A program made the translations under genes and the position numbers. Shown here piece after piece: positions 34,636-40,779 of a stretch of DNA of 64,000 nt; the stretch's first letter is position 1, and each line of letters starts with the position of its first letter. The DNA is taken from positions 56,023 through 120,022 of the IMG/VR virus record IMGVR_UViG_3300013232_000047. One strand, written 5' to 3'. The notes under the pieces are model-generated. The model saw only the letters and a program-made list of their open reading frames with translations, was not told the DNA's origin and did not search any database. The stretch is from a virus.

Positions 34636-34653
34636 TCTGTTTGGTAGAAATTC

Positions 34654-34686
34654 AAAAGCCCCCGGAGTTTCCTCCGGGGGCTTTTT
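34654..34686. terminator. bidirectional intrinsic terminator between capsid gene and array
   Basis: aaaa-gcccccggag-tttc-ctccgggggc-ttttt. Confidence 0.85.
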
Positions 34687-35801
34687 CGCTTATAACCTAT
34701 GGTGCTTTAACCCTGCACGGCTCGCTCTCACGTGTTGGTGCTCTCTACCTATCTGGCTCGCTCTGTAGTATCGGTGCTCTTGCTCGCTCTGGCTCGCTCA
34801 TCTATAATGCTACTTTCACTTATTTTGGCTCGCTCGTTCATCACGGTGCTCTCATGTGTGACGGCTCGCTCACATCTCGTGGTGCTCTTCGCGGCTGTGG
34901 CTCGCTCTTCAGTTTTGGTGCTCTCTCGGTCTCTGGCTCGCTTCTTTACGTTGGTGCTCTCTACCTATCTGGCTCGCTCTGTAGTATCGGTGCTCTTGCT
35001 GGTTATGGCTCGCTCGTAATCTTTGGTGCTCTCAGCTTCCCCGGCTCGCTCTATTTCATCGGTGCTCTCTGAAATTGCGGCTCGCTCAGTCGCTTTGGTA
35101 CTCTTTGTGGCCCCGGCTCGCTCTTTCATCTCGGTGCTCTACTTCGCAATGGCTCGCTTCTTTCCTGTGGTAATCTCTTAGGCTATGGCTCGCTCTATCG
35201 TTTTGGTGCTCTTCCTTTCAAAGGCTCGCTTCCGCATTTTGGTGCTCTCGGGTTCAATGGCTCGCTACTCCTGCTTGGTGCTCTTTGGCGATTTGGCTCG
35301 CTCTGTGTCTTTGGTGCTCTCCGACATGGCGGCTCGCTCGCGCTCTACGGTGCTCTTCAACGGATTGGCTCGCTCCTGCTGGTTGGTGCTCTCTGTCGGC
35401 ACGGCTCGCTCTACTGTTTTGGTGCTCTCACGGTCTCTGGCTCGCTTATTCTTTTTGGTGCTCTCCTGCCATTTGGCTCGCTATCTTACTGTGCTGCTAT
35501 TGTCATTTTTGGCTCGCTCGGGTTCTACGGTGCTCTATGCGTCCTTGGCTCGCTTTCCTGATGTGGTGCTCTAGCTTCTTGTGGCTCGCTCATCTATAAC
35601 GTTGCTGTCACCTTTTCTGGCTCGCTCAATCTTCGTGGTGCTCTCTGGCTTTGTGGCTCGCTCATCATCTCTGGTGCTCTCCCTTGAGGTGGCTCGCTCC
35701 TAGACTTTGGTGCTCTTCGTTTACGTGGCTCGCTCTCGCATCACGGTGCTCTCGTATGTAATGGCTCGCTTGCATTCAACGGTGCTCTACGTCTGTTTGG
35801 C
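34683..35801 (-). repeat. TIGR-type dual-repeat guide array 1 (31 units of 36 bp)
   Basis: On +: GGTGCTCT-N10-GGCTCGCT-N10, exact 36-bp period from 34701 to 35781, spacers variable, stop codons present; minus strand reads AGCGAGCC(A)...AGAGCACC(A). Confidence 0.92.
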
Positions 35802-36059
35802 TTAAATTCGTCGCCATTCTGCAATTGCTCGCATGTTGCTGGAAGGAACTTGGCTGGGTGCGTATCGACCCGTTTTTTCAATCAATTTGTCTTTTCTAGC
35901 TTGTCGAAAAACGCATCCCCAAGCGTTGGGATGCGCTGGATTTGCAGATTGGTTTTGATGTGCCTTAATGCGGATATCATCAGAGTTAAAGAGTGTTCCG
36001 ATGGGAATCCGGATGATGAGACGCATAATTTCCTCTTGCCATGCGCTGTGGTGTTGCAT
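35802..36059 (-). CDS. small putative winged-helix protein between the arrays
   Basis: HPNAWGCVF..A....LIEKTGRY..S...W motif seen in small phage proteins; TAA abuts array 1. Confidence 0.7.
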   Translation of the reverse strand: MQHHSAWQEEIMRLIIRIPIGTLFNSDDIRIKAHQNQSANPAHPNAWGCVFRQARKDKLIEKTGRYAPSQVPSSNMRAIAEWRRI

Positions 36060-36061
36060 GT

Positions 36062-36976
36062 CTAGCTCGCTTTCGCTTCTGTTGCTTGTCTGTCTAAAAG
36101 GTCATTCAGTTTAAGGACTAGGCGCTGTAGTGCCCTGTAGTCTTTCAGGTGGGTATAGTACTCTGTGACGATATTTTCAACGGTTGCTGTGTCAAAGGAC
36201 GTACCGTCGATGATCAGGTTTTTGTCACTGAATCCCCAGCGGCAGGATTTGATCTTTTGAACCTGCAGCGTAGCTTGTGCCTCTTTCAAAATCGTAGCCT
36301 TGTCTTGGACGAGCTTCTTGCCCGGCAGGATGATTCTGGACTGCCACGCGCTGATCTTGTCCTTGTCTACGGCCTGTTCCACTACGATCTTAGTCTTGCC
36401 ATCCGTTGTCACCTTTCTAGGGATAAGGAGAGTTTTGGTTTTAAGGATGTGATCCTGTGTATCGGCGGTGGCTTCTGTCATTATGACGCGCTGATAAAGC
36501 GGGCATCGGGACGTGAAAAACTGATAGCTTATACGGTTACGGCCAATCGCGTCTAAAGCACGCAGAAAACCTGCGTCGATGCTGGGACAGTTCCGAAGGA
36601 TATCAGCATCTATTTCAGCTTGTTGTCCGGACGGCGTGCGATCAATCCAAGCGACATAGAGAATTCCGGTAGCTGTCCATGCCAGATGTCCAAGGTTAAT
36701 GCCTCGTATGAACGCTTTTTTAAGTTCCCCGAGGTCAGTCGGAACTAGCAGACGCGATTTAACAAATTCATACGTCGTCACCGCGTCTGGTGTTGTTGTG
36801 AGCAATTCCTGTAAGGACTGCTTGTCGTTAGTTTTAGTGTTTGTGTTTGTTGGTTTAGTCATATATTCGCGCAACTCCTGTGTTTGTGCGCCCAGTCGGA
36901 ACTGGGCGCGGTTATGTTGCCGGGCCATCATCGACCCGCGCATTCTGGATATGGCGTTGTTTAATGCTTCGCTCAT
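36062..36976 (-). CDS. hypothetical protein between the arrays (alternative start 36862)
   Basis: 304-aa ORF; first ATG lies in the last unit of array 2; AGGAG precedes ATG 36862. Confidence 0.75.
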   Translation of the reverse strand: MSEALNNAISRMRGSMMARQHNRAQFRLGAQTQELREYMTKPTNTNTKTNDKQSLQELLTTTPDAVTTYEFVKSRLLVPTDLGELKKAFIRGINLGHLAWTATGILYVAWIDRTPSGQQAEIDADILRNCPSIDAGFLRALDAIGRNRISYQFFTSRCPLYQRVIMTEATADTQDHILKTKTLLIPRKVTTDGKTKIVVEQAVDKDKISAWQSRIILPGKKLVQDKATILKEAQATLQVQKIKSCRWGFSDKNLIIDGTSFDTATVENIVTEYYTHLKDYRALQRLVLKLNDLLDRQATEAKAS

Positions 36977-37436
36977 TTATTTTGGTGCTCTCTGGCTTTG
37001 TGGCTCGCTTGCGCATCTCGGTGCTCTCTTCCGCAATGGCTCGCTCTTTGGTTCTGGTGCTCTCATCCTGCTTGGCTCGCTCTGGTAGACTGGTGCTCTC
37101 TCCTGATGTGGCTCGCTCGTGTTGTTTGGTGCTCTCTGGTCCATTGGCTCGCTCTTTGTCCGTGGTGCTCTCCTTTGGTATGGCTCGCTTGCGTTCAACG
37201 GTGCTCTCCTTCACTCTGGCTCGCTTACATTCGGTGGTGCTCTCCTGCAATTCGGCTCGCTCCGCAATAGTGGTGCTCTCCTGCATTCTGGCTCGCTCTT
37301 ACGGTTTGGTGCTTTCGCCTTGCGCGGCTCGCTCTTTGGTTCTGGTGCTCTCATCCTGCTTGGCTCGCTCTGGTCAGTTGGTGCTCTCCGGTGTAATGGC
37401 TCGCTCATCGGTGTTGGTGCTCTCCCTAATCATGGC
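36966..37436 (-). repeat. TIGR-type dual-repeat guide array 2 (13 units of 36 bp)
   Basis: Same repeats, exact 36-bp period 36984-37416, starts at the stop codon of the Nop-like gene. Confidence 0.92.
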
Positions 37437-38579
37437 TTAAGCTGCATCTGCGTTACGCTGCGCATCTGTGTTAAGCTGTGCTTCTGCCTTATTTTTTCCC
37501 AACGGATCTTGCAGGTGGGCATGGCCCAGATGTGAGAAAACATAGGGCTTAGGAGGTTCTTTGTGGAAGTGTTGGCGGTACATTTCTTGTTGAAAATCAG
37601 CCAAGAAACGTTTTGCCACCCAGCGTAAAACTCGGTTGTGGATGTGGCCGGGAGCTAGCTTTCCCTGCTTAAGGATGGCGCGTTGCTCGTGATCGGGTAC
37701 CTCCCGTAACTTGGCAGCAGCTTGAGCGGCGTACAGTCCCGCTTCGTTACGAGCTGTTTCATAGGCTTTGCGCTCATCGTAGCTAAGGCTGTAGGTACTG
37801 GCGTCCACAAAACCTTTATTTTTACAGAATGAGTCACCGATGTAATGTTGAAGCACTTTGCACCGAGCATTCCAAGGACGCAGCGCCAAAGTTTTCACAA
37901 TCTGATCTCGTGTCAGCTTGACGCGTTTACCCTTGGCATCGGTGGTGGCGTATTTAAGCATCGAATGATAGTTGCGGTGAAACGTTTCAGACGCACGTGC
38001 CAGAATTTCCAGCGGGGTGCCCTTCTGGGCTTTTACCCATGCTTTTGATTTGTCAGCTCCCAACCACTCCTGCTGTGGATTTACTCCGAAAATGGACCAG
38101 ACATCGCCTGCGGTGAGGGCTTTTTCTGGATCAATGTAAGCCACCAGTGCGGCAGCAATTCCGTGCGAGATGCCTCTGAATTGCATCGCCCATCGGGCCA
38201 TGGGCTGTTGCTCGGCCCAGTAACGAACTGCGGTGTTAATCAGCTGTTCCTGCTTGGCAGCGTTTTTGTGGAACCATGTGAGGACTGCAGGCTGGCGCTG
38301 CTCTTCTTTTGGTTTGTGTTCCTCGCGTTTTTTAAGGCTTTTAACCTGATTCCCGGCGCTGATTCGCTTGTCCATGGCTTGCAGATATTCGCCTATCAAT
38401 ATCTTGGCTTCGAGCCGTGGCATTACGCGGACGTCTTCTGCCATGCCTTTCGGCATTTCAGTGTAGCCGATCGCTTCGGCTATTTTTTCCATGTCAGTGA
38501 GAAAGCAGCTCTCTGTGATTCTCACGTCCACTTTTCTTGGTTTGGTCTTGTCCACTTTTCTCTTAATTTTTTTATCCAT
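37437..38579 (-). CDS. Nop/IS110-like RNA-binding protein without nuclease domain (TasA-like)
   Basis: Coiled coil (EYLQAMDKRISAGNQ), HhH-like RGISHGIAAALVAYID, VWSIFG..P, PWNARCK, YDERKAYE, HIHNRVLRWVAKRFL; no RuvC DEDD or HNH seen; abuts array. Confidence 0.85.
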   Translation of the reverse strand: MDKKIKRKVDKTKPRKVDVRITESCFLTDMEKIAEAIGYTEMPKGMAEDVRVMPRLEAKILIGEYLQAMDKRISAGNQVKSLKKREEHKPKEEQRQPAVLTWFHKNAAKQEQLINTAVRYWAEQQPMARWAMQFRGISHGIAAALVAYIDPEKALTAGDVWSIFGVNPQQEWLGADKSKAWVKAQKGTPLEILARASETFHRNYHSMLKYATTDAKGKRVKLTRDQIVKTLALRPWNARCKVLQHYIGDSFCKNKGFVDASTYSLSYDERKAYETARNEAGLYAAQAAAKLREVPDHEQRAILKQGKLAPGHIHNRVLRWVAKRFLADFQQEMYRQHFHKEPPKPYVFSHLGHAHLQDPLGKNKAEAQLNTDAQRNADAA

Positions 38580-38649: not shown

Positions 38650-38690
38650 ATAAAAGTTCACACAAAAATTTAGTGTGGGATTTAGCAGGC

Positions 38691-38725
38691 ACTCAGTCTT
38701 CTGTCCAAGTGACAGAAGACTGAGT
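38691..38725 (-). terminator. hairpin after GHKL gene
   Basis: actcagtcttctgtc-caagt-gacagaagactgagt, 15-bp perfect stem. Confidence 0.6.
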
Positions 38726-38739
38726 TGATCTGTTAAGCC

Positions 38740-40779
38740 TTATTGAATGCCTTTACCGGCTTTGATAGTTCCAAAAATGCCTTGCGCCGCCTGCTGCAAA
38801 GGCCGTATACCTGCTACGATACTGGTCAGTGCTTCAGGACTGAAAAGCTTGTCGCGCAGATGTTGACGTCCATTTTTGACGAATGTCCACAAGTGAGTGG
38901 TCGCTAACCTTACGTGCAGCTCTACCTCTTGGTAGAAGGCTTGTTCAAACGTGTCGAGCTGTTCGATTGGTACGCCATTCTTTTGTACTAGGCGCTGTTT
39001 GCATGCTTGCCATGCCGCCTGAATCATAGGGTGCCGCAGATGGATTTCAATTGTGGGACCTTGGTTTGGATTAAGGTCCGAGTTTTGCTGTAATGGCAAC
39101 GCATCCTTATCTTTTGGATCGTAGGGCTTGTCCACAGTTATGGCCTCTAGCAAGCCGTACGGAACTTTGAATAGTCTACCACTACCACGACCTGTTTCTT
39201 GTGAGGGAATACGGGGACCGCCCGTGCCAATCGGTATATATGCTTCACCCGCATTGTCATTGTCTAGCTCATGACGACGACGACGACGTGTTCCTTTGTA
39301 TCGCTCTACAAGGATAGTGTTCATGTAGGGCAAGTACTGTTCACCAACCCGGCGTAGTGTTTCATCGTCTATTTCTCCTCGCATGCTTGCGAAATCGGCA
39401 AAATAGTCGTTAATGGCATTCGTAATGAATTGAGGTCGTTTAGACTGGTAGCTGGCTGTCCACTCTTCGACAGGCAGGTCAGCACCACCTTTGATTCGGT
39501 CTTGGTAGTGCAGTGTTCGACGAGACGGGTCAGGAAAAACCTTCGCATCATCTGTGCTTAAAGGCTCCACTACAATAGCGAGCCGACGGCGTACGGTGTC
39601 TGTATTGACCCATGGAAATAGTGCTGTTTTACCACGAGCATGCGTCTGAACGCCGAAGGCTTCAATGATGCCGGGATGGGCTTCGTGTATGTAGGCAAAG
39701 ATTGGCACAGATGGTGCGTCTCCAGACTGGTAGCCTGTCCAGCTGTCCTGTCCGGGTTTGCTTTCACCTATGTTAGGAAAAAGATAAGTCGTTACGTTGG
39801 CAGAGACGGTGCTATCTCCGTTAATAAGGACTGTTTCTGTGAAGGGATCGGTGCTAGCCGTTTTTTGCTTACGACGTCCCATTTCAGCATAGTGCTGTAG
39901 GCATTTTTCCATGCCACAGACAGTCCGTTTGTTCACGCCCTTACTTTGTTGTGTTTTCGGCCAGTATTCCTTTTTGCGCCAATCTTTATCTGACTCCGGT
40001 GTCTGTACTGTGATAGTCACGCCTTCTGGCAATCTGTAAAAACGTGAGTTAAGGTATTCAGTTAAGGCGTACTTTGAATTTCCTTCAGATTCGCGGTGTG
40101 GATCACCTTTTACGGTATCGTCTTCACCGGTATCACCAAGCAGCACGATTACCGTACCATGCCCGGCTTCCCAGACAAAAGGTGGAATGACTTTCATCCA
40201 GTCTATTCCATCTACAGTGAAATCCTCAAAGTAGTCTGTTAAACGATCAAGAGGAAGGACAGCCAGTGCTTCATTTGCTGCTTCGAAAGTGGAAGTCCAA
40301 TCGGCTATAAAATCGTCTTCACCGCCTACTTCTTCAGTGACCAGTTCTCGTGCGCCGTAGTCTACGTTACCCTCTTTGGTTAGACCTCGGTGGAGCCACA
40401 TCATACTGGCTCGTTTTACACCCTCAGCATCTGTCACGACAGAGAGGACAACAACGCCGTTAAAGTTCCACGGAAGGATGCTGGTTTTTAGGCCGATGCC
40501 GTAGTTGCCGGTGATGTCTCCGATGGTTCGACCTGAACCTCCGTATTTGTTCAGAAACGCGGGCATTGCCTGTGGTGGCATGCCGCACCCGTCATCGGCA
40601 ATGATACGCCGATAGACTCCTTTTTGTTTTACGGCTTGCCATTCTATGCCGAACTGGATGTTTGTTGCTCCAGCTTGAATTGAATTGACGACGGCTTCCC
40701 GTGCCCATTGATGTGATTCTGATTGCGCGTAAGCCCGATTAACGTGGGTGTATACACCCACAGCTTGCATTGGTAGCAT
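38740..40779 (-). CDS. GHKL (HATPase_c/MORC-like) ATPase
   Basis: REAVVNSIQA, IADDGCGM, GNYGIGLK, GHGTVI; own TTGACA-17-TAAATG promoter near 40860. Confidence 0.85.
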   Translation of the reverse strand: MLPMQAVGVYTHVNRAYAQSESHQWAREAVVNSIQAGATNIQFGIEWQAVKQKGVYRRIIADDGCGMPPQAMPAFLNKYGGSGRTIGDITGNYGIGLKTSILPWNFNGVVVLSVVTDAEGVKRASMMWLHRGLTKEGNVDYGARELVTEEVGGEDDFIADWTSTFEAANEALAVLPLDRLTDYFEDFTVDGIDWMKVIPPFVWEAGHGTVIVLLGDTGEDDTVKGDPHRESEGNSKYALTEYLNSRFYRLPEGVTITVQTPESDKDWRKKEYWPKTQQSKGVNKRTVCGMEKCLQHYAEMGRRKQKTASTDPFTETVLINGDSTVSANVTTYLFPNIGESKPGQDSWTGYQSGDAPSVPIFAYIHEAHPGIIEAFGVQTHARGKTALFPWVNTDTVRRRLAIVVEPLSTDDAKVFPDPSRRTLHYQDRIKGGADLPVEEWTASYQSKRPQFITNAINDYFADFASMRGEIDDETLRRVGEQYLPYMNTILVERYKGTRRRRRHELDNDNAGEAYIPIGTGGPRIPSQETGRGSGRLFKVPYGLLEAITVDKPYDPKDKDALPLQQNSDLNPNQGPTIEIHLRHPMIQAAWQACKQRLVQKNGVPIEQLDTFEQAFYQEVELHVRLATTHLWTFVKNGRQHLRDKLFSPEALTSIVAGIRPLQQAAQGIFGTIKAGKGIQ

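Follow-up and report, generated by a model that had tools for sequence, protein, structure and literature searches.

Two non-tas genes packed between the arrays of a viral dual-repeat TIGR-TasA locus

Layout of the locus

The DNA considered here, referred to as the window, is a stretch of 64,000 nucleotides (nt) from a virus, the right-hand 64 kb of a 120,022-bp IMG/VR record (IMGVR_UViG_3300013232_000047; CheckV completeness 53%). The part of it described below is most likely the middle of one compact minus-strand dual-repeat TIGR-TasA unit in a large phage, and the subject of this study is a pair of genes, neither of them tas, that lie between its two repeat arrays. Read along the minus strand, the order is tasA, a 13-unit array (array 2), an open reading frame (ORF) of 304 amino acids (ORF304), a second of 85 amino acids (ORF85), a 31-unit array (array 1) and a terminator. 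The parts abut without an intergenic base, and between ORF304 and ORF85 there are just 2 nt. An earlier note on this DNA, made from the letters alone, had described two ORFs joined to the repeats with no intervening bases, and this layout is confirmed.

The protein encoded by tasA matched NCBIfam NF052498 (TIGR_Tas_endo) over residues 60-333 with 125.4 bits against a cut-off of 100 (E 3.1e-36), and phrog_4285 with an E of 6.8e-25, and no nuclease domain was matched on its 380 amino acids in Pfam or NCBIfam. On these profile matches the locus is a genuine nuclease-less dual-repeat TIGR-Tas system, as the earlier note had held. There is just one tas in the whole 120-kb record, and neither tblastn against 50,697 phage records nor a peptide-pattern scan of the viral contig collection found a match to this Tas. 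In an alignment with 67 Tas homologues, P345, Y346, H353 and H355 were conserved at 93-100%, which is compatible with, and hints at, the published Y/H processing loop. Residues 178-233 (window 37881-38048) form a 56-residue insertion common to fewer than 20% of the 67 homologues, and the protein has 380 amino acids compared to a homologue median of 283.

Both 8-nt repeat cores were mapped by script and the arrays were then laid out in register. Edge repeats GAGCGAGCC alternate with loop repeats GAGAGCACC on the minus strand at an exact step of 18 nt, so that a unit of 36 nt consists of an edge repeat, a 9-nt spacer A, a loop repeat and a 9-nt spacer B, with zero indels. The cores AGCGAGCC and AGAGCACC alternate at exactly 18 nt in array 2, the register of which runs from 37442 to 36975, whilst that of array 1 runs from 35807 to 34692. 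A search of the 120-kb record for self-targets, defined as sites where both spacers of a unit match within 30 nt, gave 4 pairs compared to a shuffled mean of 1.5 and maximum of 4, which is not significant. Some spacers have been used more than once within 34692-37442: units 37370 and 37082 are identical, and several spacers in array 1 are nearly so. Two are common to both arrays, ACAAAGCCA being spacer A of units 37010 and 35663, and ACATCAGGA being spacer A of unit 37118 and spacer B of unit 35591.

Each array begins at a stop codon. TTAAGCC opens both, and TAAGCCA is found at 37439-37433 and at 35804-35798, the TAA ending the gene for the 380-aa Tas where array 2 begins and ORF85 where array 1 begins; the last A of the TAA, together with GCC, is an exact register match to AGCC, the final four bases of the edge repeat. 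At its other end array 2 closes with the half repeat GAGCGA (36974-36969), and ATG-AGC-GAA-GC (36976-36966) begins the 304-aa ORF. An in-frame TAA (36979-36977) stands immediately 5' of this ATG, which is therefore the first possible start. Both the fusion of array starts to stop codons and the start of ORF304 within the last half repeat had been pointed out in the earlier note; the former proved correct to the base by sequence and register, and the latter is upheld too, a homologue of ORF304 (P0002, discussed below) sharing its MSEALN start. Chance can be excluded as the origin of these joints between codons and repeats, because the register is exact and because of the comparison with other viral loci that follows. 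Both array ends carry AGCGAA, the 5' part of the edge repeat, and are thus canonical: the published form of an array end is an edge repeat cut short, with a terminator after it (as given in the published text, PMC12045711), and both arrays match the truncated repeat, with the terminator following array 1 and ORF304 standing in its place after array 2.

At the junction of ORF304 and ORF85 there is an edge-repeat-like 9-mer, AAGCGAGCT, with 1 mismatch to the 8-nt core; such cores occur outside arrays at 2.8e-4 per nt, and the observation was made post hoc. Possible readings are that it is what remains of an array once present between ORF304 and ORF85, or that Tas cleaves there. The 9-mer is preceded by GAAGCGAA, which resembles the truncated repeat of the array ends.

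Table 1. Features of the locus, in order along the minus strand (positions are those of the window)
Feature	Position	Strand	Remarks
tasA, 380-aa Nop-domain-only Tas	37437..38579	(-)	stop TAA 37439-37437 overlaps first half edge repeat
TIGR array 2	36969..37437	(-)	5' half edge repeat AGCC 37437-37434; 13 units x 36 nt; 3' half edge repeat GAGCGA 36974-36969
ORF304, very small orphan family	36062..36976	(-)	G of the ATG is also a base of array 2's terminal half edge repeat
Edge-repeat-like 9-mer AAGCGAGCT	36064..36072	(-)	8/9 match; at ORF304 stop, 4 nt before ORF85 start
ORF85, small phage protein, possibly winged-helix	35802..36059	(-)	stop TAA 35804-35802 overlaps half edge repeat of array 1
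TIGR array 1	34686..35802	(-)	5' half edge repeat AGCC 35802-35799; 31 units x 36 nt; 3' half edge repeat AAGCGA 34691-34686
Intrinsic terminator	34647..34685	(-)	14-bp G+C-rich hairpin (34685-34654), then UGAAUUU

Boundaries between genes and repeats in other viral loci

A DNA-pattern search of IMG/VR for both repeat cores at the right spacing yielded at least 117 loci for comparison (L002-L118), and all counts of loci given here refer to the 117 listed, that is to say, to arrays with identical repeat cores. Tas homologues at about 30% identity are encoded in 82 of them. The start of an array was taken as its first recognisable unit, which after removal of duplicates gave 156 starts, and open frames of at least 60 codons were considered. 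A stop codon was found at offset +1 to +3 of the boundary core, in one of the fused forms TGAGCC, TAGCC or TAAGCC, at 45 of the 156 starts (29%) as against 38 of 3120 random positions (1.2%), and within -12 to +8 at 76 starts (49%) as against 293 random positions (9.4%). The frame upstream of the 45 stop-fused starts is tas in 28 cases and some other open frame in 17, about five of which (L008, L009, L034, L063 and L107) are probably spurious, since these ORFs are very short or read along the array itself. Genes followed by a stop-fused array include those for an SNF2 helicase (L023), a ResIII/DEAD helicase (L013), a YqaJ-like recombinase (L017) and an SU10-type portal protein (L037; E 4.8e-143).

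At the other end of the arrays the half repeat GAGCG(A/T) is the usual termination. A start codon, ATG or GTG, is fused to AGCG at 6 of 148 array ends compared to 1.1% of random positions (p=0.006), several of the genes concerned being tas, and in many other loci the half repeat and the bases preceding it make up a ribosome-binding site of the GGAG type, from which the next start is a few bases away. The record under study holds a further example outside the window, a third array with the same repeats (G000:C1:1-135, minus strand) that lies about 56 kb before window position 1 and about 92 kb from tas in contig coordinates. It has at least 3.5 units, runs off the start of the contig, and has its first base one position beyond the TAA stop of an ORF that is lipoprotein-like, with a signal peptide and an LTGC lipobox.

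The fusion of genes to repeats is thus non-random, yet it is the boundary grammar of this TIGR family, whatever the neighbouring gene may be. Being family-wide, it is uninformative on the function of the genes enclosed, and the argument from zero spacing to an accessory role carries no weight since arrays fuse equally to portal, helicase and recombinase genes.

The same comparison bears on how the arrangement arose. The earlier note had offered, as an alternative to co-transcribed accessories, that the genes were inserted into one array by repeat-mediated recombination, and a two-gene cassette might indeed have recombined into an edge repeat of one ancestral array, or an array might have been duplicated around the cassette. 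Such a history would fit the half repeats GAGCGA (36974-36969) and GCC (35801-35799), which rejoin as a perfect edge repeat, with AAGC flanking both joints, and would also fit the spacers that the two arrays have in common, the near-identical units and the edge-like 9-mer between the two ORFs. However, identical half-repeat boundaries flank tas and unrelated genes in many loci and so are no scar specific to this cassette, the GC contents of ORF304 and ORF85 (0.491 and 0.461) match the genome average of 0.491, and a diverged relative, described below, keeps the arrangement. We regard historical insertion as distinctly unlikely; at the joints themselves, insertion into one array and the family-wide boundary grammar cannot be told apart. 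It would in any case concern origin, making the arrangement an accident of array dynamics, and would be compatible with either a passenger or an accessory function of the two genes.

Genes placed between arrays, or between tas and an array, are not peculiar to this record. A crude ORF map showed non-Tas ORFs of at least 60 amino acids in such positions in 23 of the 117 listed locus-strand rows, and those scanned are heterogeneous, comprising an SNF2 helicase, a TnpB, a Cro/C1 helix-turn-helix (HTH) protein, a weak terminase match and several unknowns. The TnpB/IS605 OrfB gene (L107:1403-2527) lies between tas and its arrays and matched OrfB_IS605 at 1.1e-26 and the Cas12f1-like TNB at 7.4e-22. 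The ORF in L097 is probably a divergent Tas, with a weak Transposase_20 match, and that in L068, of 326 amino acids, had no Pfam match and is Tas-like only by its N-terminal sequence. A 472-aa neighbour in L075 that had been judged ParB-like from its sequence was dropped, there being no Pfam support. All-against-all clustering of 861 ORFs adjacent to arrays or to tas produced lineage-specific groups only, the largest from 10 loci; there was no accessory family common to them, and ORF304 and ORF85 fell in no group.

The two enclosed genes

ORF304 has one close homologue, P0002, a protein of 307 amino acids from another assembly that is 56% identical over its full length. The substitutions between the two within the first 20 residues are conservative, and that P0002 also begins MSEALN favours the ATG fused to the repeat as the genuine start codon. 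Among 1.84 billion representatives, searched exhaustively with HMMER, there were just four further, distant members (P0003-P0006; E 6e-16 to 3.5e-11), three giant repetitive proteins from the same search being set aside as spurious, and a profile search with the family alignment found no new member. Judged by these homologues, ORF304 is a real gene.

Attempts to assign ORF304 to a known family gave little. It had no match in Pfam, NCBIfam or PADLOC, and in PHROGs there were just three rows at E 0.21-0.30; Pfam returned none at E up to 1 for the window proteins and none at E up to 10 for the six members of the ORF304 family. An AlphaFold model built from the six sequences was poor, with a predicted local distance difference test (pLDDT) score of 53; Foldseek found none at E <= 0.001 for it in PDB and BFVD, and the best Z in a wide VIA search was 4.9, over the terminal helices only. 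The ORF304 profile gave one row against PDB (E 1.1), and in the ESM Atlas the protein fell among unnamed viral clusters with one DUF3102 row at 0.91, which is within the range of chance. A conserved motif A-[VI]-G-E-x-R, considered by eye as a possible GERR box of ParB, was rejected for want of support from any profile and because neither its surroundings in the sequence nor the secondary structure predicted there agree with such a box.

The invariant columns of the six-member alignment, a small one, are M1, L127, L138, A143, R148, Q174, P186, G193, L222 and Q224, and there is no acidic residue and no His, Lys, Ser or Cys among the ten. The lack of residues of catalytic type argues against a role as nuclease or enzyme, so that ORF304 is unlikely to be either, although this is an indication only, and it is probably an orphan, non-enzymatic protein.

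Relatives of ORF304 were found in none of the 117 listed loci, either with tblastn, with phmmer against the ORFs close by, or with a profile hidden Markov model run over every six-frame ORF. Nor was there a match by tblastn in the 50,697 phage records, and no relative appeared in scans of viral contigs (with ORF304, P0003, P0004, P0006 and alignment A2), of metagenome contigs (with P0002 and alignment A2) or of genome contigs (with P0004 and P0006). This distribution, together with the absence of an invariant catalytic-type residue and of any match to a nuclease fold, speaks against the proposal of the earlier note that the protein is a TIGR-specific accessory, perhaps an effector acting in trans for the nuclease-less Tas.

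The smaller gene is better connected. ORF85 matched phrog_27658 over residues 19-84 (E 7.5e-08, 34 bits), and tblastn found matches at 29-35% identity in 15 phage records, from Xanthomonas CP2-like, Xylella and Arthrobacter phages. The homologue in the Arthrobacter phage BrayBeast (gp39) is annotated as an HTH DNA-binding domain protein and lies just 3' of the excisionase, and that in Xanthomonas phage CP2 (ORF39) is directly 5' of the replication initiation gene; in these phages the family is found in early or lysogeny-control regions. Because Tas was unmatched in the entire phage collection, the ORF85 family exists without TIGR-Tas. The predicted model of ORF85 has a pLDDT of 68, and its best VIA match a Z of 5.9 with a root-mean-square deviation of 3.0 A over 65 residues, the level for caution being about 8. 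The top VIA rows (Z 5-5.9) were Zur/Fur DNA-binding domains, Stn1, the winged helix of ORC2 and histone H1/H5, and Foldseek returned none for the model at E <= 0.001. The resemblance to a winged helix is weak, and ORF85 may well be a small DNA-binding protein of this kind.

That the two ORFs might not be genes at all, but chance open frames or an artefact of assembly between arrays, deserves consideration in that open frames without meaning arise from repeat arrays in every frame, and that arrays are places where contigs are apt to break. It is, however, hardly credible given that ORF304 has a full-length homologue at 56% identity with conservative substitutions and four distant homologues, that ORF85 matches phrog_27658 and 15 phage genes, and that contigs from an independent run cover ORF304 and its junction with ORF85. 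These are Logan contigs from one freshwater-sediment run (X2), which cover tas, ORF304 and the ORF304/ORF85 junction at 87-92% identity and which break or jump within the arrays, where the spacers differ. One X2 contig of 279 nt starts among array units and takes in the opening 20-26 bases of ORF304, short of the 31 bases per side required for a bridge. Since the contigs of an independent run cover ORF304 and its junction with ORF85, the arrangement is not an assembly artefact and has been kept in a close relative.

Transcript, processing and known systems

One strong terminator marks the far end of the unit. The stretch 34730-34640 (91 nt), which contains the hairpin, has a predicted folding energy of -37.4 kcal/mol (z -4.72), and none of 200 shuffled sequences was as stable. 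Between tasA and this hairpin, at 34685-34654, there is no room for another terminator. Co-transcription of the two ORFs, as supposed in the earlier note, is plausible, as both are real genes, they share a strand and an earlier terminator would find no space; one transcript would plausibly carry tasA, the arrays, ORF304 and ORF85. A scan for sigma-70 promoters gave 2 sites compared to 5.4 expected from shuffles and is not informative; one of the two is at 36195-36168, inside ORF304 and upstream of ORF85. A weak TTGACA-18-TAGTCT was seen by eye 5' of tas at 38649-38620 and was not called by the promoter scan, and promoters of the phage's own may be in use. Rfam gave sub-threshold chance rows only. 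Beyond tas, a GHKL-type ATPase gene lies at 38740-40779 (HATPase_c_3, E 6.6e-07), and between the two genes is a 12-bp perfect hairpin without a U tract (38690-38730, minus strand), where Rfam gave only microRNA-like chance rows.

How such a transcript would be processed can be outlined from what has been published. The arrays here agree in all points with the published description of dual-repeat ones, in which units are of 36 nt and each tigRNA extends between the midpoints of two successive edge repeats, and processing of minimal arrays needed full edge repeats (published text, PMC12045711); dual-repeat Tas is reported to cut within the edge repeat by way of a Y/H dyad on a C-terminal loop (published text, 10.64898/2026.09.09.750476). 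Transcription in the present locus would run from upstream of tasA through to the hairpin at about 34650, and TasA would bind the units and cut at every full edge repeat. Cutting would free a bicistronic ORF304-ORF85 RNA that keeps a single guide unit at either terminus: as its 5' leader the last unit of array 2, with the ORF304 start codon within it, and as its 3' trailer the unit with which array 1 opens. For ORF304 the only Shine-Dalgarno-like element would be GAGAG of the loop repeat, 11 nt upstream. The stop codons of tasA and ORF85 would each lie at the edge of a first guide unit, and if the half repeats were cut too, both these stops and the second codon of ORF304 would be hit. The excision of the mRNA of the two ORFs by guide processing, which the earlier note had foreseen, would thus follow from cuts at full edge repeats, and it fits the published Y/H self-processing and the conserved P345, Y346, H353 and H355.

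The boundary grammar may be understood in the same terms. The first bases of an array are (G)AGCC, which is an edge repeat's 3' half, and the last are GAGCG(A/T), its 5' half, and these halves would be the parts left in mature 36-nt tigRNAs. Adjacent coding sequences reach right up to the half repeats, with TAA, TAG or TGA absorbed into the first and ATG or GTG, or a GGAG site, made from the last.

The best account of the two ORFs, to our minds, is that they are ordinary phage accessory or early passenger genes that share the TIGR transcript; we consider this rather probable, their status as passengers being inferred. Neither ORF has the look of a nuclease acting in trans or of a factor for processing or acquisition. 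Recurrent operonic pairing with tasA, of the kind that marks TasParB, was seen neither for ORF304 nor for ORF85, and the co-occurrence of homologues with TIGR arrays that the earlier note had put forward as a check thus gave a divided answer: ORF304 has no such partners among the 117 listed loci, and ORF85 has two, among 82 Tas loci, yet occurs in phages without tas as well.

A number of points nonetheless weigh against the passenger account. Of the 82 other Tas loci listed, 2 have a homologue of ORF85 on the tas strand and no more than 1 kb from tas, one with its stop abutting the tas ATG from upstream (L051:5850-6167) and one located downstream, at a distance of about 940 nt (L040:2147-2395). 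About 7.6% of the sequence searched is that near to tas on the same strand, and by our own arithmetic the chance of both falling there is p ~0.006. This association of ORF85 with tas is the sole comparative hint, a weak one drawn from the sequence of two loci. The relative that is 87-92% identical keeps tas, ORF304 and the ORF304/ORF85 junction despite having different spacers. P0002, diverged as it is, retains the MSEA start that is encoded here by a half repeat, and its gene may therefore also stand behind an array; ten collection scans for the genomic context of ORF304 homologues gave no match. The absence of ORF304 from the 117 listed loci covers only arrays with identical repeat cores, the 56-residue insertion in TasA could be a surface for binding a partner, and no RNA run is listed for the stretch, whose co-transcription and processing are predicted.

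Such points can be read as the marks of a dedicated accessory module, in which ORF85, with or without ORF304, would be a partner or regulator of TasA. The module might anchor or modulate an RNA-guided DNA-binding complex, or control the operon, and the interleaving would tie its expression to Tas processing. The two genes lie on the same strand as tasA, with zero spacing, between two arrays of one system, and to this are added the ORF85 homologues beside tas in L040 and L051, the repeat-encoded MSEA start in P0002, and the retention of the arrangement in the relative with different spacers. The closest published precedent is tasParB, which shares an operon with tasA and is in some cases separated from it by arrays (published text, PMC12045711). 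We consider such a module unlikely, however, as the ORF304 family is found in 0 of 117 listed loci and lacks conserved catalytic residues, the ORF85 family occurs in just 2 of 82 Tas loci and yet in 15 phages of a Tas-free collection, arrays are fused as tightly to portal, helicase and recombinase genes, and ParB_N (PF02195) was matched in neither ORF nor in the rest of the 120-kb record. Co-folding of Tas with ORF304 and ORF85 gave a score of 0.05 against a mark of 0.32 for ORF85 as the partner, which is evidence neither way.

A functional role for the interleaving itself appears about as unlikely. The cuts made by TasA would punctuate a polycistron, so that expression of tasA and of the enclosed genes would depend on guide maturation, and ORF85, whose family stands beside tas in three unrelated loci, would be a new partner or regulator of TasA, to which ORF304 could be a second subunit.

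Whether as passengers or otherwise, the two ORFs show how tightly coding sequences may fit in among arrays, half repeats forming part of the codons at which they stop and start. As this layout follows a rule of the family that extends to core phage genes, it guards against calling every array-embedded gene an accessory. Two possibilities are testable now, namely that Tas processing beside stop and start codons regulates the neighbouring genes, and that a small winged-helix-like protein is a real partner.

TIGR-Tas systems were described in 2025 and usually consist of one protein and an array, with the role of the nuclease-less TasA unclear and the origin of the arrays an enigma (published text, PMC12045711); TasA has since been reported to be an RNA-guided transcriptional repressor (published text, 10.64898/2026.09.09.750476). 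The present locus resembles the dual-repeat TIGR-TasA loci of Faure et al. 2025 (Science, PMC12045711), such as that of FpTasA, in having a solo Nop-domain Tas with arrays downstream of or around genes, and it differs from what the published text describes in the two non-tas genes between arrays, the third array far from tas and the 56-residue insertion in TasA. According to that text TasA has no clear associations with other proteins apart from ParB, and TasParB was identified by HHpred. In contrast to TasParB, ORF304 and ORF85 carry no ParB signal by Pfam, a comparison to be read in the light of the use of HHpred for TasParB itself, and the ORF304 family is absent from the 117 listed loci. 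No description of non-ParB genes between dual-repeat arrays, or of arrays butted to portal, helicase or recombinase genes, was found in the published text, the supplements being outside the search; the same holds for the fusion of stop codon and half repeat as a rule, on which the supplements may bear.

Guide units that share bases with coding sequence have been reported before. The published text of Xu et al. 2026 (10.64898/2026.09.09.750476) places arrays before tas, after it or in both positions, and also within the tas coding sequence, and the authors suggest a link between maturation and translation. There, however, whole units lie inside tas, mainly in stem-loop systems, whereas here the overlap between a half repeat and a stop or start codon amounts to only 1-9 bases, and genes other than tas are included. 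ORF85 is alike by sequence, and weakly by model, to the winged-helix or HTH proteins of phage early regions (phrog_27658, BrayBeast gp39 and CP2 ORF39), the functions of which are predicted; unlike this locus, BrayBeast and CP2 have no detectable Tas. Its sequence places the system among the dual-repeat TIGR-TasA systems already published, and its study has as by-products a quantified boundary grammar and a winged-helix-like family that stands beside tas in three loci.

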